Shown one piece after another: positions 1-28,390 of a stretch of DNA of 64,000 nt (the stretch's first letter is position 1; each line of letters begins with the position of its first letter). This stretch comes from a virus. The stretch covers positions 6,949 to 70,948 of IMG/VR virus record IMGVR_UViG_3300047316_000726. One strand, 5' to 3'. A program made the translations under genes and the position numbers. The notes below the pieces were generated by a model. It was not told the DNA's origin. It made no database searches and saw only the letters and a list, made by a program, of their open reading frames with translations.

Positions 1-1815
1 GCCCAGCGGCGCCGCTGGGCCACCACCGTCATCATCGCTGGCGGGGCATGGCTGCTGTGGGCCGCGACATTCGGCCCCACCGAGGTCGCGACGCTGCTGC
101 TCGCCGGTGGGGGTGCGGCGCTGATGCTGCCGTACTGGACTCGCAACAGCCCCTGGCAACCCCACCTCGATCACGACGACGAGGAAGCCCTCGAGGAGTT
201 GCCTGAGGCGCCGACGCTGGAGCCAGTCGAGGTCCTCGACTCCCGAACCTCGACCCAGATGTTCTGGGACACCGTCGTTGCCGTGACCGTGTCCGCACTC
301 CGCGGCACCTACCTGTGCGACCCGCAGGTCACCGACGAGTTCGAGCAGTACACCATCCAACTCGCGGGCGGAACCCAAACCACCGCCGGCGCGATGGGCG
401 CGGCGACGAACGTCGCCTCAGCGTTCGGTCGCGGCCTGGACACCGTGTCGGTCCTCCCTCACCCCAGCGGCGCCCAGGACAAGGCGTTGCTGCGGCTACC
501 CATCGCGAACCCGCTACAGACCACGTTCTGGTACCCGGGCCCCGAGCAGGCCATCGACCTGCGCGACGGCAACATCCGGGTCCTCATCGGCTACCGCGGT
601 GACGGCACCCCCGTGTGGTGGACGTTCTACCTCGCCGACTTCGGCGGTCTCGGTGGCGCTGTGTTCGGCGACACCGGATCCGGTAAGAGCGAACTGCTCC
701 GCAGCCTCATCACGTCCGCCGCCTACAGCAACCTGATCACCCCGATCGTCGCGTGCCCGCAGGGCGGCGCCAGCTATCCGATGTGGATGAACAACGGGCA
801 CTGGCCCGCGGCGAACATCGACGAGATCCTCCGGCAGGGCCGCGCCCTGTTGAAGGCGCACGCCTCCCGCTCCGTGCTCAACAAGCTGATGAACCGCGAC
901 ATCCACATCCCCACCCCGCAAGCACCCGGCCTGATCTGGGTTGTCGACGAGTTCCACAAGATGAAGGGCAACACCGAGTTCTACGACATCGCCGACACCC
1001 TCGAACGCGAAGGCCGCAAGACGTTCATCCGCCTGCTGGCCGCAGACCAGGACCCCAGCGTCCCCGCCACCTTCGGGAACCGGTCGACACTGCGGTACTC
1101 GCTGCTGGCCGCCCAGGCGGTCACGCTGCGCCTGGGCGGCAACGTCGACTCCATGCTGCCGGGCATGCAGCTCGATCCCAGCAAGCTCGCCAAAACGTTC
1201 CCCGACGGCACACCCACCGCAGGCCTGGGCGTCCTGGTGGGAGAGTCCGAGGCGTTCCGGGTCGCTCGCCTGCGCGACGCCGCCGGGCTGGCCGCCAACG
1301 CGCCGACCGGCGCCATCGAGCCCGCAGTCGCGAACCGCATGGGCGAGGACTACACCCAGCGCCACGCCCGCAACCTCACCGACATCGCCGAAGCCGCCGC
1401 CGAGATGGAGCAGTGGGACCCCGAACTGGTCGCCGCCCTCGTCGCGGACAACCCGGAGCTGGCCGCCGCACTACCGCGGGTACGAGCGGAGCAGGCACGC
1501 CGTGCAGCCCAAGCCGCCACCCAGCCCGCCGGAACACCTGCCGCAACTGTGGTGCTGGATGTGCCGTCCATTCCCACGCTGCAGCTCATCCTCCCGTCGC
1601 CCACGGCACCGCCGCGTACGTGGACGTGCGTCGAGCGCGTCGACGACCTGCTCCGCCAAGGCATCACCCAGTTCGGCGAACTCATGGCCAGGGCCCGCAA
1701 GCCTGATGGCACGACCTACTCCGAGACCGCGATCCGCGGAGCACTGCGCGACCTGATCAACCAGGGACGTGCGCGCGACGGTGGCCACGGCCTCTTCGAG
1801 ACCACAGCAGCCTGA
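1..1815 (+). CDS. TraB/FtsK-SpoIIIE family DNA translocase (5' end lies outside the window)
   Basis: Frame open from base 1 with hydrophobic TM segments (WATTVIIAGGAWLLWAATF); Walker A GDTGSGKS; Walker B IWVVDEFH; C-terminal wHTH-like segment (SETAIRGALRDLINQGRA). This is the layout of actinomycete TraB proteins. Confidence 0.8.
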   Translation, partial: AQRRRWATTVIIAGGAWLLWAATFGPTEVATLLLAGGGAALMLPYWTRNSPWQPHLDHDDEEALEELPEAPTLEPVEVLDSRTSTQMFWDTVVAVTVSALRGTYLCDPQVTDEFEQYTIQLAGGTQTTAGAMGAATNVASAFGRGLDTVSVLPHPSGAQDKALLRLPIANPLQTTFWYPGPEQAIDLRDGNIRVLIGYRGDGTPVWWTFYLADFGGLGGAVFGDTGSGKSELLRSLITSAAYSNLITPIVACPQGGASYPMWMNNGHWPAANIDEILRQGRALLKAHASRSVLNKLMNRDIHIPTPQAPGLIWVVDEFHKMKGNTEFYDIADTLEREGRKTFIRLLAADQDPSVPATFGNRSTLRYSLLAAQAVTLRLGGNVDSMLPGMQLDPSKLAKTFPDGTPTAGLGVLVGESEAFRVARLRDAAGLAANAPTGAIEPAVANRMGEDYTQRHARNLTDIAEAAAEMEQWDPELVAALVADNPELAAALPRVRAEQARRAAQAATQPAGTPAATVVLDVPSIPTLQLILPSPTAPPRTWTCVERVDDLLRQGITQFGELMARARKPDGTTYSETAIRGALRDLINQGRARDGGHGLFETTAA

Positions 1816-1826
1816 GAGGGCACGAC

Positions 1827-2414
1827 ATGAGCACACTCATCCCGTCCGTGCCCGGCACCGGGCCCACAGCCAGGCGGCACGGCAGCCGTGCACGCGGCGC
1901 GGGCCGCACCTCGACACCAGCGGTTGTGGTCACGGCACTGGCTGTCGTCGGTGTGATCGGCTTCGTCGGCATCCACGCCGCCACCACAAACACTGTGGTC
2001 GCCGAACCCGCCGGCAGTGCGGTGGCAGACATTCCCGCTGACCATCTCGCCCTGTACCGGGCTGCGGGTTCGATCTGTCCCGGCGTGGACTGGGCTGTGC
2101 TTGCTGGGATCGGGAAGATCGAAACCAACCACGGCCGCTCCACCTTGCCCGGGGTCCACAGTGGGGCGAACTCCGCTGGCGCCGAGGGGGAAATGCAGTT
2201 CCTGCGCGGCACGTGGGACGCGGTCCGTGCACGGCACCCCGACATCGGACCCAACCCGTACGCGGCGAGCGACGCGATCCCCGCGGCCGCCCACTACCTG
2301 TGCGACTCCGGCGCCACCGCAAACCTGTACAGGGCGATCTTTCAGTACAACCACGCCGACTGGTACGTCCGCGAAGTCCTCGACCAGGCCGCCGCATACC
2401 GCGCCGCCGGATGA
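1827..2414 (+). CDS. Lytic transglycosylase (SLT-like), membrane anchored
   Basis: N-terminal TM helix; WAVLAGIGKIETNHG (catalytic Glu), GAEGEMQFLRGTW, AIFQYNHADWYV motifs. Confidence 0.85.
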   Translation: MSTLIPSVPGTGPTARRHGSRARGAGRTSTPAVVVTALAVVGVIGFVGIHAATTNTVVAEPAGSAVADIPADHLALYRAAGSICPGVDWAVLAGIGKIETNHGRSTLPGVHSGANSAGAEGEMQFLRGTWDAVRARHPDIGPNPYAASDAIPAAAHYLCDSGATANLYRAIFQYNHADWYVREVLDQAAAYRAAG

Positions 2415-2432
2415 CTTTTGAGGAGAATCCAC

Positions 2433-3086
2433 ATGATCAAGCAGGTCCTCGTGTCTACCGTCCTCGTCCTCGCGGTCGGCGGCACCGCAGGCGCATGCAC
2501 AGCCGAATCGCTTTCTCCAACCGCGTCCACCCCAACGACGCGGCTGGCGACACTAACGATCCGGCCAGCCGCCCTCACATCGGTACCCGCTGATATCACC
2601 ACCGCGTTCGCCATCGATGGTGACCCCGACCGGGATCGGCCGCTGGGCTCCCGATGCTCACTCCGGTCGCTAGTGATATCCGGACAAGGCACGCATGGCC
2701 ATGGCGATACCGGTGGCCTTTGCGGCACAGCAACTTCCGGTGATTGGACCCCACTGCTGGGCGGCCCGGTCGCGCACGACCCGACCACGCTCGACATCGG
2801 CTACGTGATTCCCCTGGCCGAGGCGTGGCGCTCTGGTGCAAACCAGCCTGACTTCGATCGTGCCGCGTTCGCTACGGACCCCACGTGGGAACGGACTGTG
2901 ATCACGCCCGGCTCGGACCAGGCGCGCGGCGACCATGCCCCGGATGCCTGGCAGCCTGCGGCATCAGCACAGTGCCACTACGTCGGGGCGTGGATCAACG
3001 CCAAGTGGGCCTGGCATCTGAGCATGACCCAGGCCGAACACGACGCGTTCGCTGCTGCCCTTGCCACCTGCCTGCCCACGCCCTGA
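2433..3086 (+). CDS. Secreted/lipoprotein DUF1524-like (HNH-fold) protein, catalytic residues degenerate
   Basis: AGGAG RBS; signal peptide ending GAC; LDIGYVIPLAEAWRSGA...WQP...C.Y...W...K..W.LS matches the DUF1524 pattern, but DH is replaced by GY. Confidence 0.7.
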   Translation: MIKQVLVSTVLVLAVGGTAGACTAESLSPTASTPTTRLATLTIRPAALTSVPADITTAFAIDGDPDRDRPLGSRCSLRSLVISGQGTHGHGDTGGLCGTATSGDWTPLLGGPVAHDPTTLDIGYVIPLAEAWRSGANQPDFDRAAFATDPTWERTVITPGSDQARGDHAPDAWQPAASAQCHYVGAWINAKWAWHLSMTQAEHDAFAAALATCLPTP

Positions 3087-3103
3087 CCTCCAGGAGTCCG
3101 ATC

Positions 3104-3463
3104 ATGCGTAAGTTCGCGCTCGCCGTCATGGCCGTCATCGTGGTGCTCTACATCGTCGGCCACCTCCCGACGTCGGTGGCTGACCAGAAGTCGATCCAGC
3201 AGCAGGTGGCTACCTCGGGCACCACGCCGATCCCGGCCGCCGCGCTCGCCCCAATGGTGGTCAACGGGCCCTCATACCTTCGTGCCGGAGGCGTGCAGCG
3301 GTGGTCCGTGATCTGCATTCCTGCCGACACCGTGCCATTCGAGTTCGACGCCGCCGTGCACTGGCGGGAGGTCGAAGTGTCCGAGCAAGGCCCAGACGGA
3401 CCGGACGGCTATTGGAAGTCGGGCCGCCCGTGCCCGACCGGCAACCTCCTCGCGGGCGGCTGA
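3104..3463 (+). CDS. Hypothetical secreted/membrane protein
   Basis: AGGAG RBS, N-terminal hydrophobic helix, operon packing. Confidence 0.65.
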   Translation: MRKFALAVMAVIVVLYIVGHLPTSVADQKSIQQQVATSGTTPIPAAALAPMVVNGPSYLRAGGVQRWSVICIPADTVPFEFDAAVHWREVEVSEQGPDGPDGYWKSGRPCPTGNLLAGG

Positions 3464-3464
3464 C

Positions 3465-4262
3465 GTGTGCACCGGACGTACTCACGCGATGCAGGGCGCG
3501 ATCGTCGGCCTGGTCGTGCCCGCGCTGTGCCCGACCTTGTTCGGCTACACGCCGAACCTGCCTGCCGTCCTGCTCGGCGCCGTGTTGGCCACGGGCGGCG
3601 CGTTGATCCCGGACTTGGACACTCTCAGCTCGACCGCCACCAGCTCGTTCGGCCCGGTCACCGACCTCGTGTCCAGGATGTTGAGGTGGCTGTCGCGCCT
3701 GGCGTTCCGGCTCACCGCGACCCGCACCGACCGTGCCCGCACCAAGGGCACCCACCGCGGCCTCACCCACACCCTCGTGTTCGCCATCGCGCTGGGCGCC
3801 GCGACCGCATGGCTGGCCGGCTACGGGCTGCCTGCGGTCCTGGCCATCGTGTTCATCGTCAGCTTCCTCGCCCTGCGTGGCCTGCCGCCGGTTGAGAAGA
3901 ACCTGACTGACGTGGTCACGGCGGCCGCGATCACCGGCCTGACGTGGCTCACCGTCGACGTATCGGCACTGCCGGGCTGGTGGGTGGGCGCCGCGATCGG
4001 CGCAGGCGCCCTAACCCACACCCTCGGGGACGCGATCACCGACCAGGGCGTGCCACTGCTCGCACCGATCCCGCTGGGCAACCGAACCTGGCGTCCACTC
4101 GGGACACCCCGGTTCTTGCGGATCTCCACCGGTCACTGGGTCGAGCTGAAGCTGCTGCTGTGGCTCAACAGCGCGGCGTTGGCCGTGCTGCTGATCAACC
4201 TCACACCGGGCGGCCACGAGGACCTGGTCGCGATCCTCGGCCACCACCAGGCCGCGGCCTGA
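3465..4262 (+). CDS. Membrane metal-dependent hydrolase (YdjM-like)
   Basis: GRTH, LIPDLD, HRGLTHT and THTLGD motifs; several TM helices. Confidence 0.85.
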   Translation: MCTGRTHAMQGAIVGLVVPALCPTLFGYTPNLPAVLLGAVLATGGALIPDLDTLSSTATSSFGPVTDLVSRMLRWLSRLAFRLTATRTDRARTKGTHRGLTHTLVFAIALGAATAWLAGYGLPAVLAIVFIVSFLALRGLPPVEKNLTDVVTAAAITGLTWLTVDVSALPGWWVGAAIGAGALTHTLGDAITDQGVPLLAPIPLGNRTWRPLGTPRFLRISTGHWVELKLLLWLNSAALAVLLINLTPGGHEDLVAILGHHQAAA

Positions 4263-4311
4263 GCAACGTCCGCGCGTACTTCCCCGGCGCGCGGCAGGCG
4301 GAAACGCCAAA

Positions 4312-4350
4312 AGGCCCTCGTGCTCACCAGAACGGTGAGCACGAGGGCCT
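4312..4350. terminator. Bidirectional terminator-like hairpin between convergent modules
   Basis: Perfect 17-bp inverted repeat AGGCCCTCGTGCTCACC-agaac-GGTGAGCACGAGGGCCT. Confidence 0.8.
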
Positions 4351-4370
4351 CATTGCTGTGTGGGTACTGC

Positions 4371-4709
4371 TCAGTCGCTTGGTGGCATGCCGTCGTCGTC
4401 AGCGCGCTGACTGTCCGTAGTGTCGGCGGTGAGCGCTTCGAGGTCGCGGGCGCATTCCTCCGTGATCTCATCGAGGCGCCGCCCGAACCTGCCGAGCGAG
4501 CGCAGCGTCCCGATCAACCGCTCGCGGTCTTCGTTGTCTGGTCCTATCGAGAACCGCATCGGCTGTCTCCTTGACTGCTCGGCGTCAACTCGTTGCGCCT
4601 CCAATGCGCATGACGGGCAGAGATGGGGTCCACCGCACGGAAACAGTGGCGGGGAAGGGACTGTGGGCTCGCCGTGACCTACCCAGTGGCCATGCGTCGT
4701 CCAGCTCAT
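4371..4709 (-). CDS. Hypothetical protein with CxxxxxCxxC cluster
   Basis: ORF follows the lysis cassette co-directionally. Confidence 0.5.
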   Translation of the reverse strand: MSWTTHGHWVGHGEPTVPSPPLFPCGGPHLCPSCALEAQRVDAEQSRRQPMRFSIGPDNEDRERLIGTLRSLGRFGRRLDEITEECARDLEALTADTTDSQRADDDGMPPSD

Positions 4710-4724
4710 CGGGCAGCAGGTTCC

Positions 4725-5588
4725 TCAGCGGGTCGGTTTCAGAAGCGGCGGGGCGGTCGAGGTGGACGGCGTCACCGCGGGGCACGAGTAGGTCGGGGAA
4801 CTGTCCGGCGATTTGGGGTCCCGCGTGCACTGATAGGTGCGCCCCAGCGTGTCCGTCCATGTCCATCCGGCGGGCGGCTGCCCAGCGGTACCCGGCAGTC
4901 CTTGCGGCCCAGTCGGTCCTGGTGGTCCTGCGGGGAGCGGACCGGCGTCCTCGGTGATGCTGTCGGTGTAGGTGACGATCAGGTGCCCGTTGTTGTTCGT
5001 GACGGACTGGACCCCGCGCCCGGCAGCGCCGGTCGCGCCGACGGCACCGTCTTTCCCGACGACCTGCCCGGCGTCCGCGGTCGACCCGTCCGAGTAGGAC
5101 AGCACCAGGTGCCCGCTGGTCGCGTTCGCACCGGTGATCCCACGACCAGCTGGTCCGGTCACACCGGCCGCGCCTTGAACCTGCCCCTTGTCCTCCGTCG
5201 CACCGTCCGAGTACGTGACGAACAGATGGCCCGCACTGATCGACGTCCCGGTGATCCCGCGCCCCGCCGGACCAGTCGGCCCCGGTGAGCCTGTGGGCCC
5301 CGGCGGCGGCTCGACCTTCGGCGTGCCGCCCAACTGCTTCACCTGATCGGCAAGAGTCTGCGCGGCATCATGATTCACCTCGGCCGCCGCACGGTTCTTC
5401 TGATCACTCGCGGCAAGCGTGTCGACCTCCGCCTGCAACCCGTTCGCACGGAGCAGGAACAAGGCCGCCAGAGCAAGAAACGCCGCGACGGCGACCGCAC
5501 CGAACACCGCCATCTTCACGTGCCCACGACGATCCCGAGCGCCCTTGGCGGCCGGTGTGGACGCTGCCTCCCGGATGTCATCGGTCAC
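4725..5588 (-). CDS. Collagen-like membrane-anchored protein of the lysis cassette
   Basis: N-terminal TM helix, coiled coil, G-X-Y triplets interrupted by three AGRG(I/V)...GHL..(T/S)Y(S/T)D repeats, C-terminal Cys pair. Confidence 0.75.
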   Translation of the reverse strand: MTDDIREAASTPAAKGARDRRGHVKMAVFGAVAVAAFLALAALFLLRANGLQAEVDTLAASDQKNRAAAEVNHDAAQTLADQVKQLGGTPKVEPPPGPTGSPGPTGPAGRGITGTSISAGHLFVTYSDGATEDKGQVQGAAGVTGPAGRGITGANATSGHLVLSYSDGSTADAGQVVGKDGAVGATGAAGRGVQSVTNNNGHLIVTYTDSITEDAGPLPAGPPGPTGPQGLPGTAGQPPAGWTWTDTLGRTYQCTRDPKSPDSSPTYSCPAVTPSTSTAPPLLKPTR

Positions 5589-5842
5589 TCGCCCTCGACC
5601 TCCTTCCGGTGCCGCTTGGCATGCAGTTCACGCAGCTTCGCCAGCTCGTCGACAGTGATCTGCCCGTCCGCGACCGCGGTGAGCATCTCTTCCACCGCAC
5701 GGTCAGCCGCATCAGTCGCGGCGTCCTTCCGTTCCCGCCTGGACGACCGCAGCCACGTGACGACCAAGGCGACCGAGGACGTGACTCCGGTGAACATGGT
5801 GCCGATCGCGCCGAGCAGAGTGGCCAGATCACCCACGTTCAC
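5585..5842 (-). CDS. Single-TM holin-like protein
   Basis: N-terminal TM helix, basic stretch, position in lysis cassette. Confidence 0.55.
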   Translation of the reverse strand: MNVGDLATLLGAIGTMFTGVTSSVALVVTWLRSSRRERKDAATDAADRAVEEMLTAVADGQITVDELAKLRELHAKRHRKEVEGE

Positions 5843-5878
5843 CTCCCCGCTGCGTCACGGATGCCACGGCGAGCAGGC

Positions 5879-6211
5879 TTACTGCTTGAACGAGGATGGA
5901 GGCGTGGACCGGGATCCGATGCGCTGCATCGCCACCGTGGCACCGACTGGCTTCCAGAAACCCAGATGGCTGCCCACCCCGAAAAGGAACGTCCCGACGA
6001 ACGTCAGGAGCGTCGCGCCAAGATCGAACGGGGTGTGGTTGGCCAACGAATCACCGAAGGTCATGACCGCGGTCGTCAAGGCTGACAGGGCGATCAGCAC
6101 GACAGCTTTCACGCCCGCGCTGGTGTTGACCTGCGTGACCAGCCCGGTCAGGAGCGGGAGAACTACGCCGACCAGTAGCGAAATCACCTGAGCAGGATCG
6201 AAGTGCACCAT
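5879..6211 (-). CDS. Holin
   Basis: 110 aa, three TM segments, basic C-terminus, next to lysins. Confidence 0.75.
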   Translation of the reverse strand: MVHFDPAQVISLLVGVVLPLLTGLVTQVNTSAGVKAVVLIALSALTTAVMTFGDSLANHTPFDLGATLLTFVGTFLFGVGSHLGFWKPVGATVAMQRIGSRSTPPSSFKQ

Positions 6212-6224
6212 GATGTTTGTCCTT

Positions 6225-7193
6225 TCAGGACAGGCCCTTCACGGCCAGCCAGGTTCTGACGGCAGTGGCCGCCTTCTTGTTGTCACCGGTGTGCCGCTCG
6301 CTCAGCCACGTCCGAACAGCTGTTGCCAGAGCCCGGTCGGCCGAGTCCACAGCTGGCGCAGGAGGCTCCGGTGTCGGGGAGGGGCTGGGAGTGCCGCCGG
6401 GAAACGGACGCCCGGTGAGGGCGGTGTAGTCCGCTGCGAGAGAGGACAGGTTCACCCCCTGCTGGAATCCGGTGGCGCCGAGGTGCTCGGGCCAGACCAC
6501 GACGTAGGCCTCCTGGACCTGGTGCTGCCAGAAGGAATCCGTGAGCGCCACGACTTCGGCCCACGTCACGACGGACAGGTCACCGCCCGTCGCCGACGAC
6601 GTGTACGCGCCAGTCAGCACGGCGTGGCCGCCCCACTGCGACGAGGACTGGTAGTCCCACAAGCCGTTGTTGGTCTGCGTCTGCTGTGCCACCTCGAGGT
6701 CGACACCGAGCAGCAGCGATCCGAAGATGGAGACCGCGGCCCGCACCTCGTCCAGGTTGGACACATCGACCGATGCGAACGCCAGAGCCTTCACGCCGCC
6801 GATTCCGCCGGAGACGACGGCTTGCAGCATGGTCTTCATGTCCACGCCGTTGTCGTCGACACCAGTGGCCGGGTCGAAGGTCGGGTTGCCGCTGCGCCGG
6901 TACAGGTCGAACACGTCGGCCTGCGACGGCGAATGCTCGGCGCCGCCCAGGTAGCGGGTGATCAGCTTCCGGCAGTTCGCGACCGACGTCGGCCCGCAGT
7001 CACCGAACTGGTCGTTCTCGTACAAGCCCCAGTCCACGACTTCCGAGAAGTGGTTAGCCGCAGCGGGATGTGCGGGCACGACGCCGGTGAGGTAGCGACC
7101 GAGCTGGAGAGTGCGACGGTTCGGGTCGTGCGGGCGCCGCCCGAGTCGACGGCCGGGCACGAGCTGCGTCTCGACGTGGGCGTCAGCAGGCAT
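6225..7193 (-). CDS. Papain-like cysteine peptidase, putative second endolysin
   Basis: NDQFGDCG (Gln...Cys) and GGHAVL (His) motifs; Pro-rich linker plus helical C-terminal domain; start chosen at GAGAGGA RBS. Confidence 0.6.
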   Translation of the reverse strand: MPADAHVETQLVPGRRLGRRPHDPNRRTLQLGRYLTGVVPAHPAAANHFSEVVDWGLYENDQFGDCGPTSVANCRKLITRYLGGAEHSPSQADVFDLYRRSGNPTFDPATGVDDNGVDMKTMLQAVVSGGIGGVKALAFASVDVSNLDEVRAAVSIFGSLLLGVDLEVAQQTQTNNGLWDYQSSSQWGGHAVLTGAYTSSATGGDLSVVTWAEVVALTDSFWQHQVQEAYVVVWPEHLGATGFQQGVNLSSLAADYTALTGRPFPGGTPSPSPTPEPPAPAVDSADRALATAVRTWLSERHTGDNKKAATAVRTWLAVKGLS

Positions 7194-7240
7194 GCTGTGG
7201 GTCCTCTCGGTTCTCATGGTTCTCGGCGTACGTATCCCCG

Positions 7241-8032
7241 TCAGTCGTTGGGGTTCGGGTCGGTGCCGAGGCGCTCGGCGAGTTCGGCCGCGACAGCGTT
7301 CTTCAGCTGGGCGGCCAACTTGACGGCGACCTTGGTGGCCAGCGCGTCGAGGTCCACGTTCGGCGCCACCACCTGAGAGATCAGGCTCGAGATCTTGGTG
7401 TCCACCTCGGTGCGCACAGTCGCGACGTCGGCGTGCATGGCGGTGATCTGCGCGTCCGACCAGGCGGCCATGGCGAGCAGTGACGTGGTTCCGGTCTGGC
7501 CGGCTCCTTGCCGCTGGATCGGATAGTTGAGCAGTTGCAGGATCTCGTCGGGGGTCACTGGTCCTCCTTGGGGGGCGTCCACGCCTGGCCAGTAGTCAGC
7601 CACGACCGAGAGGTCGTAGCCGCCTGCGTCGGTGTGCTGGTGGGCCACGCTGCCGGGGTAGAGCACAGGGCCAGGCCCCGGATAGGCGGCGACCCAGTAG
7701 TGCGGCTCAGGGACACCCTGGGACTTGAACGCGTTGATGACGTAGGGCCACCACGCCTCGGAGCAGTACACGGTGGGGTCGACACCAGCGCGGCGCCGCA
7801 TGAGCACCCAGGGGGGGCACTGATCTGGTGTGGCGTCGCCGGTCTCGCAGTCGAGCACATGCCCGTCGCTGGTGGACGGGAACACGGCGATGCGCACCTT
7901 CACGGTCCCGGTTCCCCAGCGAGCCCAATCTGCGGCTGACCACGCATACCGGCCGTCGACATACCCAGCGACCATCGCCGCAGTCGTCGGGATCGCACTC
8001 GGCGTCACCGAGTCGTACATGAGGCGCGTCAT
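7241..8032 (-). CDS. Endolysin, GH25/DUF1906-like muramidase with helical C-terminal domain
   Basis: MYDSVTPSAIP...VAGYVDGRYAW...VLDCETGD...PTVYCS...YWVAAY...AHQH pattern; ATGA overlap with the upstream gene. Confidence 0.75.
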   Translation of the reverse strand: MTRLMYDSVTPSAIPTTAAMVAGYVDGRYAWSAADWARWGTGTVKVRIAVFPSTSDGHVLDCETGDATPDQCPPWVLMRRRAGVDPTVYCSEAWWPYVINAFKSQGVPEPHYWVAAYPGPGPVLYPGSVAHQHTDAGGYDLSVVADYWPGVDAPQGGPVTPDEILQLLNYPIQRQGAGQTGTTSLLAMAAWSDAQITAMHADVATVRTEVDTKISSLISQVVAPNVDLDALATKVAVKLAAQLKNAVAAELAERLGTDPNPND

Positions 8033-8484
8033 GAGATCAGCCCTCTGACGTAGATCTCGCCCTCGAAATCCGCCACCGACGCGACGTGCTTTCCGCCGTG
8101 CCCGCGGTGATGGAACACGCACAGCAGCTCAAGGTTCTCCGCCTGATCGAGCCACGCCCCGATGCCCTGCGCGGACACCCCGGGGTAATCGCGCTCCAGC
8201 AGCGCCAGGTCCACGCCATTCTGCAGCGCGAACTCGATGTGCTTGTGGTGGCACTCCAACGGCTTCGTCAGATCACACTCAGACTCGTCGCCACCGCGGT
8301 GCTCGACAGCGAAGTCACAGTGGTAGGTGCCGTCGACCTTGCGGCGTCGTTTGTATTCGTCGAAGTCATGTTTGTGCGGGTCGTGCTCGCGGGGCTCATG
8401 GGCAGGGAAGCGCACCGAATAGGAGTGCGTCATCTTCTGATCGTGGGCGGCGACTTCGTCAGTGGGACCTGCTGATTCGGCCAT
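8029..8484 (-). CDS. His-rich HNH-like protein
   Basis: LECHHKHIE...NLELLCVFHH...H resembles the HNH beta-beta-alpha-metal motif. Confidence 0.5.
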   Translation of the reverse strand: MAESAGPTDEVAAHDQKMTHSYSVRFPAHEPREHDPHKHDFDEYKRRRKVDGTYHCDFAVEHRGGDESECDLTKPLECHHKHIEFALQNGVDLALLERDYPGVSAQGIGAWLDQAENLELLCVFHHRGHGGKHVASVADFEGEIYVRGLIS

Positions 8485-8494
8485 CGGTCGCTCC

Positions 8495-9034
8495 TCAGCG
8501 GATCGGCCGGGGACCGTCAACCGGCGCGGCGTCGGGCTCGGGCTGCTCGGGATCCAGCGACGGCACCATCGGCACCTGCGGGACCGGGGTCACGGTGGCG
8601 TGCTGCCAGTCCAACTCGCCCACACACATCCCGTATTCGTTGCGGTGCGGCCAATCGACCGTGAGGACCTGATAGTCATCGGCCCCGATCCTCACCTGCT
8701 GGCCTGGTTGCAGCGGGGCGTGATGGCAGCCCGCGAACAACTCGATGCCAGTTTCGTCCAGGACCCGCACCCGTGCCTCGGGTGTGCCTGTGACCGGCCG
8801 CAGGTGCCGGTCGAGGTAGAGCGGTGCTTTCGGTTCGGAATGGATAGTCAGCTCGGCGGAGTTGCGGTCGGCGGCGACGGTGACGGCGACGAGGACGTGC
8901 CAGAACGCTGGGTCCAGCCCAGGGCACTGCACGCGGGACTGCAACCACTCCCCGAACGACGTGGGGAGGAATCCGCCGCCGCCAGTGGGTTGGGCCGGGA
9001 TCTCGGGATAGACGGTGAGGCGGCAAAGGAACAT
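8495..9034 (-). CDS. Hypothetical protein at end of tail module
   Basis: Co-directional ORF between tail and lysis genes. Confidence 0.55.
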   Translation of the reverse strand: MFLCRLTVYPEIPAQPTGGGGFLPTSFGEWLQSRVQCPGLDPAFWHVLVAVTVAADRNSAELTIHSEPKAPLYLDRHLRPVTGTPEARVRVLDETGIELFAGCHHAPLQPGQQVRIGADDYQVLTVDWPHRNEYGMCVGELDWQHATVTPVPQVPMVPSLDPEQPEPDAAPVDGPRPIR

Positions 9035-9065
9035 CGCGGGCGCCCTTTCATGAAACGTCGTGGGG

Positions 9066-9638
9066 CTAGTAAGGGGCGTCCCATCGGGCGCTGAGGTAGG
9101 TTCCCGGTACCGCGCTCAGCAGGTTCAATGCGCCACCAGAGCTTTGGTAGATGTACCCGTAGACGGTGGCCCCTGCCGCGAGATGCTTGTATGCCTGGAC
9201 CTGGAACCAGATCGACCCGGACGCCGCCGAGTTCTGGAAATCGTTCTTGGCTACGGAGTTCACGCTCTCGGTGAGTCCGTTGACCATGATCCCGCAGTTG
9301 CGTTCGGACAGTGTGCCGCTGGCCCAACTGACCTGCATCAATATCGAGTACCAGCCCGACGTTTGGATTGTCAGCGACGCCGGGGACGACACAACCCACA
9401 TGTTGTCGGTGTTGCTATTGGCAACGTTCCAGGAGATCACCTGGACCGAGTTGTTCGGCATGGACTGGTTCGCGTTGAGCGCGACCTCGATCAGCGGCTT
9501 CGTCGACACAGTACTGGCTGCTGTCTTGCCAGTCGTCAACTGACACAGGGTGTCAATGTTGGTCGAAAGGTTGTTCACGCCCCCCTGGTGCACCACCACG
9601 GAATCGGTGAACGTGGTGAGCGCGGACATTGACGGCAC
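9066..9638 (-). CDS. Minor tail / receptor-binding protein
   Basis: Ser/Thr/Asn-rich beta protein after the large tail protein; TIQTSGWYSI...GIMVNG...HLAAGATV pattern like tail-tip head domains. Confidence 0.65.
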   Translation of the reverse strand: MPSMSALTTFTDSVVVHQGGVNNLSTNIDTLCQLTTGKTAASTVSTKPLIEVALNANQSMPNNSVQVISWNVANSNTDNMWVVSSPASLTIQTSGWYSILMQVSWASGTLSERNCGIMVNGLTESVNSVAKNDFQNSAASGSIWFQVQAYKHLAAGATVYGYIYQSSGGALNLLSAVPGTYLSARWDAPY

Positions 9639-9647
9639 AGGGACCCC

Positions 9648-12137
9648 CTAATAGATCGGGACGGTTGTGACGCCCATGACGCTGTACGTCGAATCGCCCA
9701 TTACCCACGCTGATGGCACGAACACGGGGGACAATTGCAGGTCTATTGTCCAGTACGGTGTCGACGAGTTGATGTTGATCGAGTGGTTGATCTGTTCCAC
9801 GTAGTAGTTGCCGCTGATCGTGACTCCGTTGACGCGGCGAGTGACCGTCACCCGCTGCGAGATCTCCAGGGCCAGTACGACGGGCCACATCCCCGCGTTG
9901 CCCAACGGGTTCAAGGTGAGCTTCCGAATTCGGGCTTTCGGGGTGCCGTATCGTTGCAGGTAGAAGATTGCTGCCTGCCCAAGGTCGAAGTCGGTGTTGA
10001 CCTGCAACTGCTGCGTCAGAATCCGCTGTCCGTACGCGGCCTGTGAGGTCGCGTTCATTTGCGGCGCGTACATCTGGTTTGCGGGTCGACCCAGGTTCGC
10101 CTGTGAGTACACGTAAGTTGGGTCGAGGTCGTACTCGAGGTTCTCGTACGGCAGTTCGCCGATCCCGTCGCCAAAGGTTGCGACGCTGGATTGTGTCGCG
10201 TACCTGCCGGATCGGTCTTCGAACACAATCACGCCAGTCCGGTCGGCATACACCAGCCCGTTCTCGGTGTTGCAGATTTCCTGCAGCACGTCCAGCATGC
10301 TGCGTGTGGTGTACCCGAAATCGGCCGCCAGCTGGATGTAGCCAGCCGCAACAGACTTGGGGCCACCCCAGTACTGGGTGAGCAGGCGCGCGACCCTAGT
10401 GCCCGACAGTTCCCCGATGTAACCGATACCTCGCTGGTAGTGCGCGGCCCGGGTGGTCGAGCCGATATCTCGGGTGTAGACCGCGACACGGGACGCCGAC
10501 ATCTGAGCCTGCGCTGAGCCGAGTCCCGTATAGCCGTTGAACTCGACGGTGTTGAACCCGATATTGTGGGCATTGGCGAAAGGTGACGAGATCGCGAGTT
10601 CGACGCCATCCAGGGTCAGGGTGACCCCCGGCGTCCCGCCGCCCAGGTCAGTGAGGGTGATTGCGTAGTAGTGCCAGGCGCCGTCGGCATAGCGATTGAC
10701 CGCGGGGTTCACCTGGTCGAGGGTGTACAACTTGAGGGTAGCCGTATCCTGGTCGTACAAAGAGAAGGCGATCTGTTCGACGATGCCAATGTAGTTGGTG
10801 ATCTCCAGGATGCTGCCCGCGGCCGGAGTCGTGGACGTCAGATCGAACGCCTGGGACAGTTGGAACAGACCCAGAGTTCCAGATATCGCTTTGAACCATC
10901 CCTCCACTGTGGTTCCGGTCGTAGACAGGCTCAGTGGGCTGCCGATCATCTCCAACACGGTCCGGTTATTGGGCACGCCTCCAGTTACCGGAACCGGGTT
11001 GCCGGGGTTCTTCTGCGTAAGTGATACCGCCGGCGTGCCGTCCTGGACACTGTCACCGGTCCACTGGATCGACCCGTTGGACGAGTTCGGCAGCTCATAC
11101 GGCACGAACGACTCGGTTTTGATTCCCCCTAGCGCACCCTGCACCGATGAAGTTTTGTTGTTGAGCGGCAGGTAGAACCGCGGGCTGTCACCGGTGATCG
11201 TGAGGTCATAGCCCTGCGAGATCGCCGCCCTCGACAGCGGCGCCAGCGCGTCCACGCACTCCAGCGGCCGCACACCCCGAAATCCCTGGTCGGTCCACGT
11301 CTGCGGCCAGCGCTCGACGTAGCCGGTGTAGATCGGGTACAGCTTCGGCCCGCTGGTCGTGAACGCACTGGCCGCTACCCCGAACTCGAGCTGGGTCGCA
11401 TCCACATAGAACGTCGGCGTCGCCGTCACGCTGCCGTAGACGGTGACGGCCTCAAGGGTGTCAACACAGTTCCACGTGATCGACAGCCGGGTCCATGTGT
11501 TCTGTGTGGACGCCGTGGCCGATGTGTGAATGACACCGCCGTCGTCGGCGACCTGCGCGGTGACCGAGCATCCACCGGTGGGATAGACGTAGACGGAGAA
11601 CGTGTAGGTGATCGGCGGGGTCGTGGGGAACGTGTTGACCACGCCACGGGTGACGCCAGCGGAGGACTGGGTGACCAACAGGCTCTTGGTGCCCGAGAAA
11701 TGCTGGGCGCTGGACACAACGCAGGTGGTGGTTCCACCTGCTGGCGCCCATAGGCCGGTGGTGGTCTCGAAACTCGGGTCGTAGCCGGTGTTGACACCGG
11801 AGTTGATGATGTTGCCGCTCCCGACCGCGGTCGGCCACATCACGGGAATCTGAACACACCGGTACGGCAGGATCGTCTGTGCGCCCGAGTTGAAGACGCT
11901 GCCGGTGTTGCTGGGGTTGAGCTGCTCCTGCGGGTCAAGAACCGTGACCTGCGCGGTCCCAGCCTCGCAGACCGCGAGTTCGTACTGGCGGCCACGTCCT
12001 GTGGCGACCTGTCCGATCCCCAACCCGCGGCGTTGCAAGCTCATCCGCGCCGCGCCGGGCAGGTTCGGCGGCCCCTGCGTGTTGTCGACCTGCACATCCA
12101 CCAACGGCCACGACGAATTGGGCAAGATCGTGGCCAT
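9648..12137 (-). CDS. Large minor tail protein with CBM-like and LamG/concanavalin-like inserts
   Basis: Directly after tape measure; PSFE...W...G.KSL...YTFSVYV...FYVDA.QLE (CBM4/9-like) and VEGWFK...DGAWHYYAIT..LDGV (LamG-like). Confidence 0.75.
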   Translation of the reverse strand: MATILPNSSWPLVDVQVDNTQGPPNLPGAARMSLQRRGLGIGQVATGRGRQYELAVCEAGTAQVTVLDPQEQLNPSNTGSVFNSGAQTILPYRCVQIPVMWPTAVGSGNIINSGVNTGYDPSFETTTGLWAPAGGTTTCVVSSAQHFSGTKSLLVTQSSAGVTRGVVNTFPTTPPITYTFSVYVYPTGGCSVTAQVADDGGVIHTSATASTQNTWTRLSITWNCVDTLEAVTVYGSVTATPTFYVDATQLEFGVAASAFTTSGPKLYPIYTGYVERWPQTWTDQGFRGVRPLECVDALAPLSRAAISQGYDLTITGDSPRFYLPLNNKTSSVQGALGGIKTESFVPYELPNSSNGSIQWTGDSVQDGTPAVSLTQKNPGNPVPVTGGVPNNRTVLEMIGSPLSLSTTGTTVEGWFKAISGTLGLFQLSQAFDLTSTTPAAGSILEITNYIGIVEQIAFSLYDQDTATLKLYTLDQVNPAVNRYADGAWHYYAITLTDLGGGTPGVTLTLDGVELAISSPFANAHNIGFNTVEFNGYTGLGSAQAQMSASRVAVYTRDIGSTTRAAHYQRGIGYIGELSGTRVARLLTQYWGGPKSVAAGYIQLAADFGYTTRSMLDVLQEICNTENGLVYADRTGVIVFEDRSGRYATQSSVATFGDGIGELPYENLEYDLDPTYVYSQANLGRPANQMYAPQMNATSQAAYGQRILTQQLQVNTDFDLGQAAIFYLQRYGTPKARIRKLTLNPLGNAGMWPVVLALEISQRVTVTRRVNGVTISGNYYVEQINHSININSSTPYWTIDLQLSPVFVPSAWVMGDSTYSVMGVTTVPIY

Positions 12138-15100
12138 CAGAACTGCACCGCCGTCCCCTGCCCAAGACCGTTACCGACGTTCCGCCCTGCGTGCTGTAGA
12201 ACGATGTCCTGGATGTAGCGGCGCAGATCCCCTTGGTGCACAAGGTTTCCCTGCACGGTGAGCTGGAACACGATCGGCTGCGCACCGCCGTTTCGACTGC
12301 CGGCCCCTCCGCCGCTGGCGAATGCCGGGTTGAGCGACATGCCTGTGCTCGAGGAGAGCGGGACAGCGCCGACCATGGACGACATGGCTGCGGCGACAGT
12401 GGCCTGCTGCGACATCAGCCCGGTCGCGACCATGCGGCCGACGGTCGCGCCGGCCAATTCCGGCGAACCCTTACCCGAGAGTGGGCCTTCCTTCGCAGGG
12501 CTGTGTGGCAGCCGGTTGCTCATCGCGCCGGCCAGGTTATTCGCGGCCAATTCGACGTTGAGGACCTGTGCGGAAATTCCGCGAGCGAAATTCGCGCCCA
12601 CGCTGCTGCCTGAGGCAAAAGCGGAACCGACCACGCCCCACAGCGGACCCACACCGGTGTTGGCCAACTGGCCTGCGGTGGCGGATACCGTGGGGACGGA
12701 GTTCGCGATTCCTCCGGCGTAGTTGTTACCAACAGCGGCCCCGGCAGTGCCCGCCGCCGGGATCACGCCCCATAGGGGGCCTGTGCCCGAGTTTGCCAGT
12801 TTCCCGGCGCTGGACTGAACCTGCGGTAGCGTATTCGCGATGCCTGTCGCGTAACTATTTCCTGCCGCCGAGCCGGCCGTTCCGGCGGGAGGGGTCGCGC
12901 CATTCATTGTGGCGACCAATCGGCTCACAACCTCGTCTCCTGCCGCGTCCACGGCTTGACGACCGGTCAGGATTCCAGAACCGAACTTGTCCGCGATTGC
13001 GCGCCCGGCTGGCGTGGGGTCAAATAGCCGGAAACTATCGCCGACGTCGCCTGTTACCTTGGTTGCGGCATCCAGTGCGTCCCCGACGGCGTTCTTCATC
13101 CCTTCGGAGAAGTCCCGCGTGGTCTTCATTCCTGCGGTTGTCCAGTGCTGCTCTGAAAATACTTGCTGGATTGATTGCGTTAGTGCGGTTGCCGCGGCGG
13201 TCGTGCCGGAAATCCCAGATCGGATAGCGTCGCTCAGATGTTTCGTGTACGTGTCGCCGATCGAGGCTGCGAATTCTTTGTTGAAGTCGGCTGCGCTGGT
13301 CATGGTGCCGTTGAGAGAGTTGACCGCGTCGGCCCCGGCCTTCGAGGCATCCGTCATATTACTGCCGAGATTTTTGAACGCGTCCCCGAGTTCCCGGAAG
13401 CCCTGCTGCGCTTGGTCCGTGTTACCGGAGGTAATGCCATGCATGATGTCTTGAAGGGCATTGAATCCCATGCCCACGGACGTGACCGCGTTGATGATCA
13501 ACTGAAGGGCGTTCGACACACCCTTAGCGAAAGCGTCCATCGTGTCCTTGTTGCTGACGATGGTGTTGATGCTATCGAGGAAGTCCTTCAGCTTCGGCAG
13601 GACGGCTGTGCCGATCTTGATGGCGAGCGATTCGAGGGTGCCCTTGAACTCCGAGAACTTCTGGTTGAAAGTGGACTGCACATCAGACCACCCCTTGACG
13701 CTGCCATCTGCCTCTGTGGCGGCACCGGCGACGGCCCTGATCGCCGTGTTCGTTGTGTCTGCGTTCTCGCCGGTCAGCATCAGCGCCGTGTTCAACGTGG
13801 TGGAGTCGCCGGTAGCCCGCTTGAGGGCGTCCGCGAACGCGAGTGCGTCGGGGTTGCCCTGCTTGAGCATCGTCGAGAAACCGGTAGCCCGGTTCGCGGT
13901 CGTCTCGAACTGCTTGCCCAGGTTTGCCATCTCCGGCGGCAAACCCTTGATGGCCTTCGTCAGATCGCCTGCGGAAACGGAACCCTTCAGGTATTCCTGG
14001 GCCACGTTCTTGACCGACGCGGGCATCTTGTCCATCATCTGCTGGAGAGCCTGCGCCGCATCCTTGGAGTCGTTGAATGCATTGACAACAATTTTCCCGG
14101 CCGGGCCCATGTGGTCGGAGATGGTCTTCTCGATCAATTGCAGCGTGCCTGACAAGCCGCGTTCGCCCAGCTTGGACGACAGGTCCTGGGCGGACAAACC
14201 CAGCTCGCCGAGCATGTCGCGCTGTCCCTGTGTAGTGGTTTGCAGGTGCTGAATTGTGTGCGCCAGGTTTTGTGACGCCTGATCGGCCGACATTCCGTGG
14301 ATTGTCATGCTGGCGAGGTCGCCAAGGATGTCGTTCAGAGAGATGTGGCTGGCGGAAGCGACCGGAAGCACAGAGTGCAATGCGCCGGTGAATTCTTCGA
14401 ATGTAGACTTTCCGGCGCCGACCGCGGCGACGAGTTTGCTCGTGACCAGCGCGGAGTCTTCCGCCTTGAGGTGATAGTCCTGCAATACGCTCGTGACTGC
14501 GTCGGTGACTTTCACCAGATCCGCATTCTCGGCCTTGGCGCCCTGTGCCGCCGCTTGCAATACCTTGAGTCCGTCGGCGCCGTGCTGGCCGCCGGACTCG
14601 ACCGTGTACATCGCTTTCGAGAGTTCCTCGGCCGAATACCCGACAGATCCAGCCATCGCAAGGATTCCGTCGCGGACCAGGCCGAGGTTGTCGTGCGTCT
14701 CCCCTGCGGAGGTGACCAGTCGGTTGGTGGATGATTCGAAGTCGGCGGCCATCTTGACCGTGCCCGCGCCGACAGCGACTGCGGCAAGAGCGACACCGAT
14801 GCCGACCTTGCCCAACCGTGCCACCGCGCCGTCGGTGGCCGCCGCGTTCGCGACCGCGGATTCGTCAGTCTTGGCCGCGAGCGCCGTGATGGACTTCGCC
14901 GCGCGGGCGTCCGCGGCTTCCATCTCGGTGGCGACCTTCGCGGTCTCGGCCCGCATCGCCTCCATCGCGGCCGCGTAGTCGACCGCTGCTTTGTCTGCGG
15001 TCGCGGCAACGGACTCCACGGAGGTGTTGAGCCGCAGGACCTCGGCTTCTACAGATGCGGTGAGTTCAGCGGTCGCCGCCGCGACGGCTTCGTTGGCGGC

Positions 15101-15430
15101 GATCTCCTTCGCCGCGGCTTCCTCCGCTGCGGTGGCCGCCGCTGCTTCGGCCGCGGCCATCTGTGCTGCCGCAGCTTCTTGTTCGGCTGCTGCAGCGGCC
15201 GCCCCGGTGCCTCCAACCGCGCCCGCTTCGGCCGCGCCGGCCATCGCCGCCGCGTCGGCGGCGCCTCCGCCACCGATGGACGCCATGCGGGCGTCAAGTT
15301 CGGCGATCTGCACGGTGGTGGCCTCGACGAACGCGGCCATGCGCGCTTCTGCCTCGGTGAGCATCGCGGCATACCCGGCCATGTCCCCAGCCAGCACTGC
15401 CACAACAGGGGCAAGGAATTCCTCAGACAC
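12137..15430 (-). CDS. Tape measure protein (TP901-like core)
   Basis: 1097 aa, Ala-rich helical; AADFES...ELSKAMY...LKVL.AAAQGAKA core; located after the chaperone genes. Confidence 0.9.
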   Translation of the reverse strand: MSEEFLAPVVAVLAGDMAGYAAMLTEAEARMAAFVEATTVQIAELDARMASIGGGGAADAAAMAGAAEAGAVGGTGAAAAAAEQEAAAAQMAAAEAAAATAAEEAAAKEIAANEAVAAATAELTASVEAEVLRLNTSVESVAATADKAAVDYAAAMEAMRAETAKVATEMEAADARAAKSITALAAKTDESAVANAAATDGAVARLGKVGIGVALAAVAVGAGTVKMAADFESSTNRLVTSAGETHDNLGLVRDGILAMAGSVGYSAEELSKAMYTVESGGQHGADGLKVLQAAAQGAKAENADLVKVTDAVTSVLQDYHLKAEDSALVTSKLVAAVGAGKSTFEEFTGALHSVLPVASASHISLNDILGDLASMTIHGMSADQASQNLAHTIQHLQTTTQGQRDMLGELGLSAQDLSSKLGERGLSGTLQLIEKTISDHMGPAGKIVVNAFNDSKDAAQALQQMMDKMPASVKNVAQEYLKGSVSAGDLTKAIKGLPPEMANLGKQFETTANRATGFSTMLKQGNPDALAFADALKRATGDSTTLNTALMLTGENADTTNTAIRAVAGAATEADGSVKGWSDVQSTFNQKFSEFKGTLESLAIKIGTAVLPKLKDFLDSINTIVSNKDTMDAFAKGVSNALQLIINAVTSVGMGFNALQDIMHGITSGNTDQAQQGFRELGDAFKNLGSNMTDASKAGADAVNSLNGTMTSAADFNKEFAASIGDTYTKHLSDAIRSGISGTTAAATALTQSIQQVFSEQHWTTAGMKTTRDFSEGMKNAVGDALDAATKVTGDVGDSFRLFDPTPAGRAIADKFGSGILTGRQAVDAAGDEVVSRLVATMNGATPPAGTAGSAAGNSYATGIANTLPQVQSSAGKLANSGTGPLWGVIPAAGTAGAAVGNNYAGGIANSVPTVSATAGQLANTGVGPLWGVVGSAFASGSSVGANFARGISAQVLNVELAANNLAGAMSNRLPHSPAKEGPLSGKGSPELAGATVGRMVATGLMSQQATVAAAMSSMVGAVPLSSSTGMSLNPAFASGGGAGSRNGGAQPIVFQLTVQGNLVHQGDLRRYIQDIVLQHAGRNVGNGLGQGTAVQF

Positions 15431-15436
15431 GGTCGG

Positions 15437-15886
15437 TCACCTCCCGATGCCGGTGGCCGACCACATGGCCCGGAAGATCGCGCGGAGTTTCGGTCTCGCC
15501 TTGGCCAGACCTGGGGCCACGTAGGGCCGAGCGGGCAGGTGTGCGCCGTGTCCCGCGGTGCCGCCGAGTTCGTGGATCCGCGAGTACGGGGCGGTCGGCC
15601 CGACCTTCGCTTCGGCTCGGGTGAGACCGATTGGTGTGGCGGGAGTGGCTCGAACCGATGCCTTCAACCGGCCGGTGATCATCGCCGGGGGCTCACCTGG
15701 CGACGACGGTGTCTTCGTGCCCTTCGCGTGTTCCTTCAGCATCAACTGGTCGACGATGTCTTCGCGGACCTGTTTGGCCGCGGCATCGACAGCGAGAACC
15801 GTGGCGGCACGCTTCTCGATCTGCATGGACCGCAGGCACTCTTGGAATCCGCTGACACCACGCCATTCCAGAGCCACCACACCCAC
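15437..15886 (-). CDS. HK97 gp10-like tail/neck protein
   Basis: SSPGEPPAMITGRLKASV...YSRIHELGG...LPARPYVAP motif. Confidence 0.75.
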   Translation of the reverse strand: MGVVALEWRGVSGFQECLRSMQIEKRAATVLAVDAAAKQVREDIVDQLMLKEHAKGTKTPSSPGEPPAMITGRLKASVRATPATPIGLTRAEAKVGPTAPYSRIHELGGTAGHGAHLPARPYVAPGLAKARPKLRAIFRAMWSATGIGR

Positions 15887-15907
15887 CCCGTTCCGTGCTG
15901 GCAGGGG

Positions 15908-16147
15908 CTACGGGGGGCGGTTGGTGTCGTGTGCGGCCTCGGCACGGACGGCGGCGACCGTGGGGATTCGGGCCACCAGCCACGCCGGGAGGTCGGCCTT
16001 CTGCGCGGGGGTGAGGTGGTACTCGCGCAGCCACCACTCGGCGTCAGCGGCCCGCTCGAGCAGTTCGGGCTCGCCGGGGTGAGGTGGGTTGTTGTCGAAA
16101 CTCCAGCCCGCGAACCGTGCTCTCAGTCGTTCGCGGGCGCGGTAGGG
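15908..16147 (-). CDS. Tail assembly chaperone C-terminal extension (-1 frame, G/GT-like)
   Basis: Protein-like -1 frame (PYRARERLRARF...WWLREYHLTPAQ..DLPAWL) with no start of its own, overlapping the chaperone 3' end. Confidence 0.6.
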   Translation of the reverse strand, partial: PYRARERLRARFAGWSFDNNPPHPGEPELLERAADAEWWLREYHLTPAQKADLPAWLVARIPTVAAVRAEAAHDTNRPP

Positions 16148-16491
16148 GACGCGGGATCGTCGTGGTCGTCGACGGAGGCAGGCTTGGGGAACAACATTTC
16201 CCGCGCCTTGAGGATGTATGGATCCAAGGCATCGGCGTCGCGGATCTTCAATTCCCGCAGCAGCGCGGGATTGTCCGCGGGGAGTGCGTCGGGGTCGGGA
16301 AGGTAGGGGATGTGCCATGCCGCGATGAGCGCGAGCTTGAGGCCGGTGACCAGGTCCCAGCCGAAATGCAGTGGCTTCCCGGCGTCGAACTTTCCGAGTC
16401 GACGTTGGACGTCTTCGCGGTCGCCGTCGCGGAGGTCCTCGGGATCTCTGAGCTCGACCCAGCCCCCTGAGGGCAGTTCGACACGGTCCAT
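16123..16491 (-). CDS. Tail assembly chaperone
   Basis: Small acidic protein right after the tail tube gene. Confidence 0.75.
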   Translation of the reverse strand: MDRVELPSGGWVELRDPEDLRDGDREDVQRRLGKFDAGKPLHFGWDLVTGLKLALIAAWHIPYLPDPDALPADNPALLRELKIRDADALDPYILKAREMLFPKPASVDDHDDPASPTAPAND

Positions 16492-16503
16492 GGCGGAGGG
16501 TCC

Positions 16504-22559: not shown

Positions 22560-22591
22560 GGCAGACTCCTTTCTGCGAAGTAGAGAGGGGG

Positions 22592-24466: not shown

Positions 24467-24502
24467 GACGTCCTCCAGTGGTGGCCGACAGACCGGCCGA
24501 AC

Positions 24503-28362: not shown

Positions 28363-28390
28363 AGCTCACCCCCAAGGTGGTTGCTCGTGT

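Follow-up and report, generated by a model that had tools for sequence, protein, structure and literature searches.

Do a TraB-like conjugation operon and a tailed phage that converge on one stretch of soil metagenomic DNA belong to a single element, and by which routes might such an element spread? The question is raised by a stretch of 64,000 nucleotides (the window) that corresponds to positions 6949-70948 of the 77,174-bp virus record IMGVR_UViG_3300047316_000726; positions on the whole record are given below as contig coordinates. The first-pass annotation of this DNA had placed a TraB/FtsK-like translocase, an SLT-like lytic transglycosylase, a lipoprotein and a YdjM-like hydrolase opposite a phage lysis cassette, across a single 17-bp hairpin, and had proposed one element spreading both as virions and by TraB conjugation. 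All of these features lie where that annotation put them, and the conjugation block and the phage are physically one element. We consider it probable that the window comes from a single circular element of 91,773 bp, a temperate siphophage with a toolkit of the plasmid or actinomycete integrative and conjugative element (AICE) type that includes a TraB conjugation set. The gene content indicates that it may spread both as virions and by conjugation.

The public record bears no terminal repeats. It begins exactly with the stop codon of a gene on the minus strand and its final base truncates an open reading frame (ORF); such ends point to a provirus that was cut back to a gene boundary at one end and runs out with the contig at the other. 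The source run is a 2023 soil metagenome, the sole public run in which the tra/phage junction was found by exact protein look-ups. Among the Logan contigs of this run, SRR26077937_45353 (48,743 bp) matches contig 75536-77174 and contig 1-11757 at 100% identity and bridges the right end of the record to its left end via 14,599 bp that are absent from the record, and SRR26077937_26932 (43,090 bp) supplies the remainder. Each of the two joints between them has an overlap of 30 bp, which gives a circle of 91,773 bp, and their word depths are 72.3 and 72.4. The TraB-bearing contig on record is 91,900 bp long, that is, 91,773 bp plus a 127-bp assembler overlap. Since two Logan contigs tile the element and the 91,900-bp contig has the expected length, it is one circle, assembled twice and independently, of which the public record is a cut version. 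The inspection for circularity that the first-pass annotation had recommended thus gave a closed circle.

The 14,599 bp missing from the record (loci L003 and L004) contain more early genes, a divergent HTH_31 pair arranged like cro/cI, and a gene for a tyrosine integrase of 404 aa with a non-coding stretch of 477 bp behind it; the Logan contigs show no branching downstream of this gene. Accessory genes in this segment comprise an Rv1352-like gene, a DUF397 plus HTH_31/DUF5753 pair, RbpA, a DUF3558 lipoprotein and a ParE/Phd pair, and no housekeeping gene was found within it. Provirus trimming cost the circular contig 14.6 kb, including the integrase and the immunity switch, so that the public record misrepresents the element. 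The content of guanine plus cytosine (GC) is alike across all segments (0.65-0.68); a tetranucleotide comparison of the segments was set aside because its values were unstable, probably owing to rare words. The host would be a high-GC, probably mycelial, soil actinomycete. As for the breaks in the Logan assembly, one falls within the IS630-family insertion sequence described below, and the second (contig 75536-75565 = window 68588-68617) interrupts an unremarkable early gene, where the contigs overlap by 30 bp and no repeat is visible; a strain variant may have caused the latter.

The simplest way to account for the two gene sets as separate entities would be a prophage that happens to sit beside an AICE in a host chromosome. 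In favour of this, the record is of the cut "provirus" type, and a recombinase is encoded in each of the two parts. However, the tra block is flanked by phage DNA on either side, the circle closes at equal depth, chromosomal genes and attachment-site (att) repeats are absent from it, and the arrangement recurs elsewhere. The first-pass annotation had noticed no host housekeeping gene or att-like repeat at the junction; we found none either, nor a tRNA fragment, and the attL/attR core repeats near 4.3 kb that it had named as evidence for two elements did not appear as a pair flanking the tra block. When the integrase region was compared with the full circle for exact repeats of at least 12 bp, only repeats of up to 16 bp came up, which is in the chance range, with none at the tra/lysis junction, and a T-loop pattern search recovered nothing beyond the tRNA-Leu of the phage itself and one site within coding sequence. 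Because the pairing of tra and phage genes recurs in divergent relatives from other samples, a chance neighbourhood is very unlikely.

The tra block (contig 1-11,210; genes g001-g015) lies between the immunity/integrase region and the lysis cassette. The gene for its TraB-like translocase of double-stranded DNA (g011, window 1-1815, plus strand) is intact; it begins at contig 6673, which is 275 nt upstream of the window, so that the window holds the C-terminal 604 of its 696 aa. The Walker A (GDTGSGKS) and Walker B (VVDEF) motifs are invariant among 15 homologues, and the TraB profile matches EccC/FtsK in PDB at 2e-7. In an AlphaFold model with a mean pLDDT (predicted local distance difference test) of 75, the core best matches TcpA, an FtsK-like conjugation coupling protein, and FtsK motor domains (E = 1e-13, TM about 0.55 by target). 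The N-terminus has long membrane helices at residues 42-141, together with a hydrophobic segment, and the C-terminus is modelled as a helix-helix-helix-strand-strand unit (residues 635-693, pLDDT above 80) that forms a winged helix.

By tblastn, relatives of this TraB were found on 46 actinomycete plasmids, with 26-33% identity confined to the ATPase core, and none was found among 50,697 GenBank phage records. A first viral scan using TraB alone gave no match. Pattern scans with TraB or the TraB alignment, which have low sensitivity and do not show absence from cultured strains, yielded no relative in 185,579 species genomes. No DNA match was obtained by megablast either for the tra block against plasmids or for the phage part against GenBank phages. 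TraB relatives at 48-60% identity came from metagenomes only.

Around TraB, the block includes an HTH_36 Rep-like protein on the minus strand (g001, identified by Pfam) and, at the operon head, a regulator with GntR and UTRA domains, both above the Pfam cut-offs (g002, contig 1029-1757); no convincing GntR operator was found in the spacer between g001 and g002. An excisionase-family protein (g003; TIGR01764, 34 bits against a cut-off of 28.8) and a 494-aa membrane protein (g006) are also encoded, and small proteins (g007-g010), one of them with four membrane helices, lie between g006 and TraB; g006-g010 are kept alongside TraB in relatives. Downstream of TraB, all on the plus strand, lie genes for a membrane-anchored, 195-aa SLT-like lytic transglycosylase with the motifs ETNHG, GEMQF and YNH (g012, window 1827-2414), a predicted lipoprotein of 217 aa without family assignment that has a signal peptide and a lipobox ending in GTAGAC (g013, window 2433-3086), and a small secreted or membrane protein of 119 aa (g014, window 3104-3463). 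The SLT-like protein reaches an ESM Atlas feature score of 0.95 and a TM of 0.66 to actinobacterial SLT clusters; its match to a PHROG endolysin domain is weak and its Pfam match is below threshold. A Pfam SLT gene occupies the equivalent position in relatives, and BLASTP between our SLT-like protein and these Pfam-SLT proteins revealed no clear homology. The last gene of the plus-strand block encodes a YdjM-family membrane hydrolase (g015, window 3489-4262; Pfam PF04307, 1.5e-16; phrog_20744, 6e-32), which may represent phage cargo and not transfer machinery, though it is co-oriented with the tra operon. Between the convergent tra and lysis operons lies the hairpin, a perfect 17-bp inverted repeat with a loop of 5 (window 4312-4328 and 4334-4350). 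It is probably a two-way terminator lacking a T tract; a consensus terminator scan returned nothing.

In Streptomyces plasmids, the clt locus consists of direct 8-bp repeats that are bound by the cognate TraB (PMC4447253). A candidate clt was detected at contig 3657-4042, upstream of the window (locus L001), where GCGGCCGA occurs seven times on the same strand and once inverted; the copies lie in mixed reading frames within the 3' part of g006, and the Poisson probability of such a cluster is about 6e-14. Comparable arrays were found in metagenomic relatives of the element, which are labelled L066, L067, L068, L071, L073, G001 (L060) and G002 (L077): CACCGCTGA in seven copies in G002, GCGGTTGC in eight copies in G001, and further arrays at the same operon position in L066, L068 and L073. 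Thus, every element in which the region is available (six including our own) has a same-strand cluster of 8-9-bp words between its g006-like and g007-like genes, and the word differs in each of them, an arrangement in keeping with the published account of clt (PMC4447253).

At least seven metagenomic relatives, whose TraB proteins are 30-60% identical to ours, retain the tra operon. In L066, L067, L071 and G002, the core g007-g008-(g009)-g010-TraB adjoins homologues of our own tail and lysis genes, and with G001 the number of relatives in which TraB adjoins homologous phage tail or lysis genes rises to five. G002, a 104-kb record, follows the gene order of our circle along the sampled length, including the Xer-like recombinase; the regulators and the integrase are not conserved in it. 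G001, a 103-kb record, has a TraB in the same slot. The tail and lysis genes of both records are 41-62% identical to ours, whereas the TraB identities are 30% for G001 (15310-16602) and 59% for G002 (67656-69620). Since the two records are equally similar to our element in tail and lysis genes but carry very different TraBs, the comparison suggests that tra modules have been exchanged at a fixed genomic position. L068 and L073 have kept the operon and show no homologue of our phage genes within 10 kb. Five viral contigs of other large phages, with nothing but the lysin in common with our element, gave no TraB match, and an empty result there shows nothing.

These comparisons bear on a further explanation, in which the circle is a recent cointegrate of a temperate phage of about 71 kb and a conjugative plasmid or AICE of about 21 kb whose parts are not co-adapted and will separate. 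The segment from the integrase to YdjM does hold an AICE-like set of genes in an unbroken row (an integrase with 477 non-coding bp downstream, Rep-like protein, GntR, excisionase and TraB), which fits the published description of such elements (PMC2440964). Moreover, the boundary of the record implies that geNomad-style trimming treated part of it as non-viral, and the lack of conserved regulators and integrase in G002 is also in line with a separable module. On the other hand, five relatives whose proteins are 30-60% identical have the tra core beside homologous phage tail or lysis genes, which a one-off recent fusion would not produce; neither part is bracketed by att-like repeats, and the GC content is similar throughout. 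We therefore regard a recent cointegrate as unlikely. Our tentative proposal, which goes further than the unity of this one circle and which we hold with less confidence, is a widespread, as yet uncultured soil lineage of temperate actinophages of about 90-120 kb that would combine a phage with an AICE-like conjugative element, with three routes of transmission, namely vertical (as a plasmid or integrated), in virions, and by TraB-mediated passage of the entire double-stranded circle from hypha to hypha, TraB/clt pairs specific to each element, and swapping of the tra module in its slot.

In its resting state the element may be a plasmid or may be integrated via the 404-aa integrase, and a Kor-type GntR/UTRA repressor would keep the tra operon off in the lysogen. 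After derepression, TraB hexamers in the membrane would bind the repeat array via the C-terminal winged helix and would pump the circular, double-stranded element to a neighbouring hypha, with help from the SLT-like enzyme as well as from the small membrane proteins. If the late operon were induced instead, virions would result.

The pump might also serve the phage in some other way, such as moving phage or prophage DNA across septal cross-walls within the mycelium, superinfection exclusion, or the uptake or export of other DNA. PHROGs classes phage FtsK/SpoIIIE-like proteins only as "moron/host takeover", the small partner proteins of our TraB have no recognized Spd homology, and in Streptomyces TraB and Spd proteins drive intramycelial spreading as well (PMC4447253). 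Intramycelial spreading is, however, mechanistically the same process, and the combination of membrane anchor, motor, winged helix, Kor-type GntR, wall hydrolase and repeat array is a conjugation set. In addition, the tra gene of the plasmid-phage pZL12 is reported to support conjugal transfer (PMC3583192). An alternative role of this kind is accordingly rather doubtful, and we favour a role of the TraB operon in conjugation.

The remainder of the circle carries, on the minus strand, the full gene set of a siphophage, and about three quarters of the 91.8 kb consist of phage genes. The virion, packaging and lysis set is complete, with large terminase (TerL), portal-MuF, protease, probable capsid, tape measure, tail, holin and endolysin genes, and all phage ORFs examined are intact. 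Within the late operon, an IS630-family insertion sequence with a DDE_3 transposase occupies window 24504-25699 on the plus strand, with TA duplications on its flanks (24502-24503 and 25700-25701). The insertion point is exactly the stop codon of portal-MuF and the orientation is opposite to that of the operon, so that 1.2 kb lie between the portal and protease genes; the TA duplication keeps the portal stop codon, and the ribosome-binding site and ATG of the next gene are intact. The nearest relatives of this insertion sequence are copies of about 79% identity on Streptomyces and Rhodococcus plasmids. Judged by gene order, it is not found at the equivalent place in the relatives of the element.

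The insertion raises the possibility that the circle is a conjugative plasmid with a decaying prophage, in which the IS630 stops particle formation and the element persists as a plasmid or AICE. Its position between portal and protease, opposite to the direction of the operon, would agree with this, as would the circle at high and uniform depth and the ParE/Phd toxin-antitoxin pair. No IS-free contig was found in the source run, although contigs cannot reveal rare IS-free variants; the comparison with the run also gave two low-depth "joints" with short sides, which are likely from other organisms. Against decay stand the intact phage ORFs, the intergenic location of the insertion with stop codon, ribosome-binding site and start codon preserved, and the relatives that lack it. 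A decaying prophage is thus quite unlikely, and a temperate phage with a TraB conjugation set is the reading that we retain.

Several observations weigh against a phage that is maintained as a plasmid and spreads by conjugation. The Pfam FtsK_SpoIIIE match to TraB is just below threshold (23.1 against 24 bits), and g006-g010 show no match to any Spd, Pfam, NCBIfam or PHROG family. The GCGGCCGA array is only a predicted clt-like site, proposed from its position and repetition. The first-pass annotation had advised looking for par genes, and neither ParA nor ParB appears in any Pfam table of the circle; moreover, the classical integrase and the excisionase-family gene argue for integration over plasmid maintenance. 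Replicating DNA or circularly permuted virion DNA can likewise appear as a circle in a metagenome, and every relative is metagenomic. Finally, the IS630 may be polar on the capsid, tail and lysis genes, in which case this copy may make no virions. Features of the plasmid type are nonetheless present, namely two HTH_36 initiator-like proteins, iterons with a second array of the same core, the ParE/Phd pair and the Xer-like recombinase.

The closest known counterpart in organization is pZL12, also known as the phage phiZL12 (Zhong et al. 2010), with its relative pSLE1. The passages on it in citing papers (PMC3583192, PMC7157519 and PMC4487206) describe pZL12 as both a plasmid and an infective phage, with conjugal transfer via a principal tra gene together with two genes next to it. 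Its GenBank entry (GQ919031) is a circle of 90,435 bp on which phage genes are joined by ParAB, an FtsK-like tra gene and a GntR regulator. Our element likewise is a circle of about 90 kb from a high-GC actinomycete that combines a tailed-phage set with an FtsK/SpoIIIE-type tra gene, membrane-protein neighbours and GntR. However, detectable kinship is limited to TerL (39%, N-terminal half), GntR (28%) and two small matches, and no TraB counterpart was detectable in pZL12 at E = 0.01. The two also differ in that pZL12 has ParA/ParB, none of which was found in our circle, and in that the tra block of pZL12 is co-directional with, and just upstream of, the late operon, whereas ours converges on the lysis end. 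The classical integrase, the excisionase-family protein and the Xer-like recombinase are additions of our element. Because only TerL, GntR and two small matches are common to both, our element is a separate lineage of pZL12's kind; the idea of such a hybrid is itself already known.

The transfer genes resemble the TraB/clt/Spd/TraR (Kil-Kor) systems of Streptomyces plasmids such as pSVH1, pSG5 and pIJ101 (PMC4447253) in the FtsK-like, hexameric-type motor with a winged helix, the GntR-type repressor at the operon head, the small membrane proteins around the pump and the element-specific, same-strand 8-bp repeats. They differ in that identity to the Streptomyces plasmid TraBs is at most 33% and limited to the ATPase core, and in that the partner proteins have no detectable Spd homology. 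Furthermore, our array is located about 2.6 kb upstream of traB within another gene, and the cargo is a 92-kb phage genome. In pSVH1, clt is placed at the traB 3' end.

AICEs are defined by an integrase with attP downstream, an excisionase, a GntR regulator, a Rep protein and an FtsK-type Tra (PMC2440964). Our element matches this layout with its integrase and the non-coding stretch downstream, its excisionase-family, GntR and Rep-like proteins and its FtsK-type Tra, and in L066 a NUDIX gene follows the tra genes, which is a further likeness. AICEs measure 9-24 kb, lack virion genes and reside in tRNA genes, whereas our element measures 92 kb, is mostly phage and circular, and has no tRNA-derived att site. 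The combination of phage genes with an initiator and iterons, a toxin-antitoxin pair and a recombinase like a dimer resolvase on one circle also recalls the phage-plasmids P1, N15 and SSU5 (Pfeifer et al. 2021; PMC7969092). In the survey of phage-plasmids, conjugation was sought via CONJscan, that is, through relaxase and mating-pair-formation genes (PMC7969092). TraB-type systems have neither, and so hybrids of the present type would probably go unscored by CONJscan and have probably not been counted.

If the TraB operon works, a temperate phage would reach new hosts without receptors, capsids or lysis, which would change how host range, phage resistance and the spread of lysogens are modelled in mycelial soil bacteria. 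The recurring position of the element-specific arrays also offers an in vitro handle on TraB/clt specificity.

Three plasmid-like features that the first-pass annotation had reported within the phage part, a Xer-like recombinase, a direct-repeat array and an iteron-bearing initiator gene, are all present. The recombinase, a tyrosine recombinase of 521 aa, is encoded mid-phage (window 44481-46046, minus strand; XerC profile, 2.5e-35) and has a 31% identical homologue in the matching part of G002. The array consists of seven CCGGACA repeats in non-coding DNA (window 43001-43217; 43.0-43.2 kb). The HTH_36 initiator-like protein is encoded at window 62708-63949 on the minus strand, and its TCCCGGACA iterons lie within its own coding sequence (63197-63381; 63.2-63.4 kb), 20 kb away from the CCGGACA array, with which they share the core. 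In having a further set of iterons at a distance from the origin, the element is reminiscent of iteron plasmids with their copy-control arrays, such as incA of P1, and the O gene of phage lambda likewise is an initiator gene that contains its own iterons.

The other phage genes of the window are all on the minus strand. Facing the hairpin, a small ORF of 62 aa (window 4371-4559) is the last on the phage strand. It is followed by genes for a 287-aa tail-like protein, a collagen-like minor tail protein that matches PHROG tail families and has a homologue in L067 (window 4725-5588), a holin with two membrane helices (window 5879-6211; phrog_8269, 1.9e-18) and an endolysin with a weak GH25-like match and 53 related viral loci (window 7241-8032). 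The tape measure protein (PF10145, 2.8e-28) is encoded at window 12137-15430. Head genes occupy window 20820-24466, with a phrog_13692 protein that is the probable major capsid protein and a head-maturation-protease fusion, and the portal-MuF fusion and TerL span window 25699-29860. The early genes of the phage include sigma-like and WhiB-like regulators, and a tRNA-Leu is present. The WhiB-like gene is located in the early region at window 47535-48050, and WhiB-like homologues in two relatives lie a few genes upstream of the tra genes (L066, 4811-5155; L068, 3891-4511).

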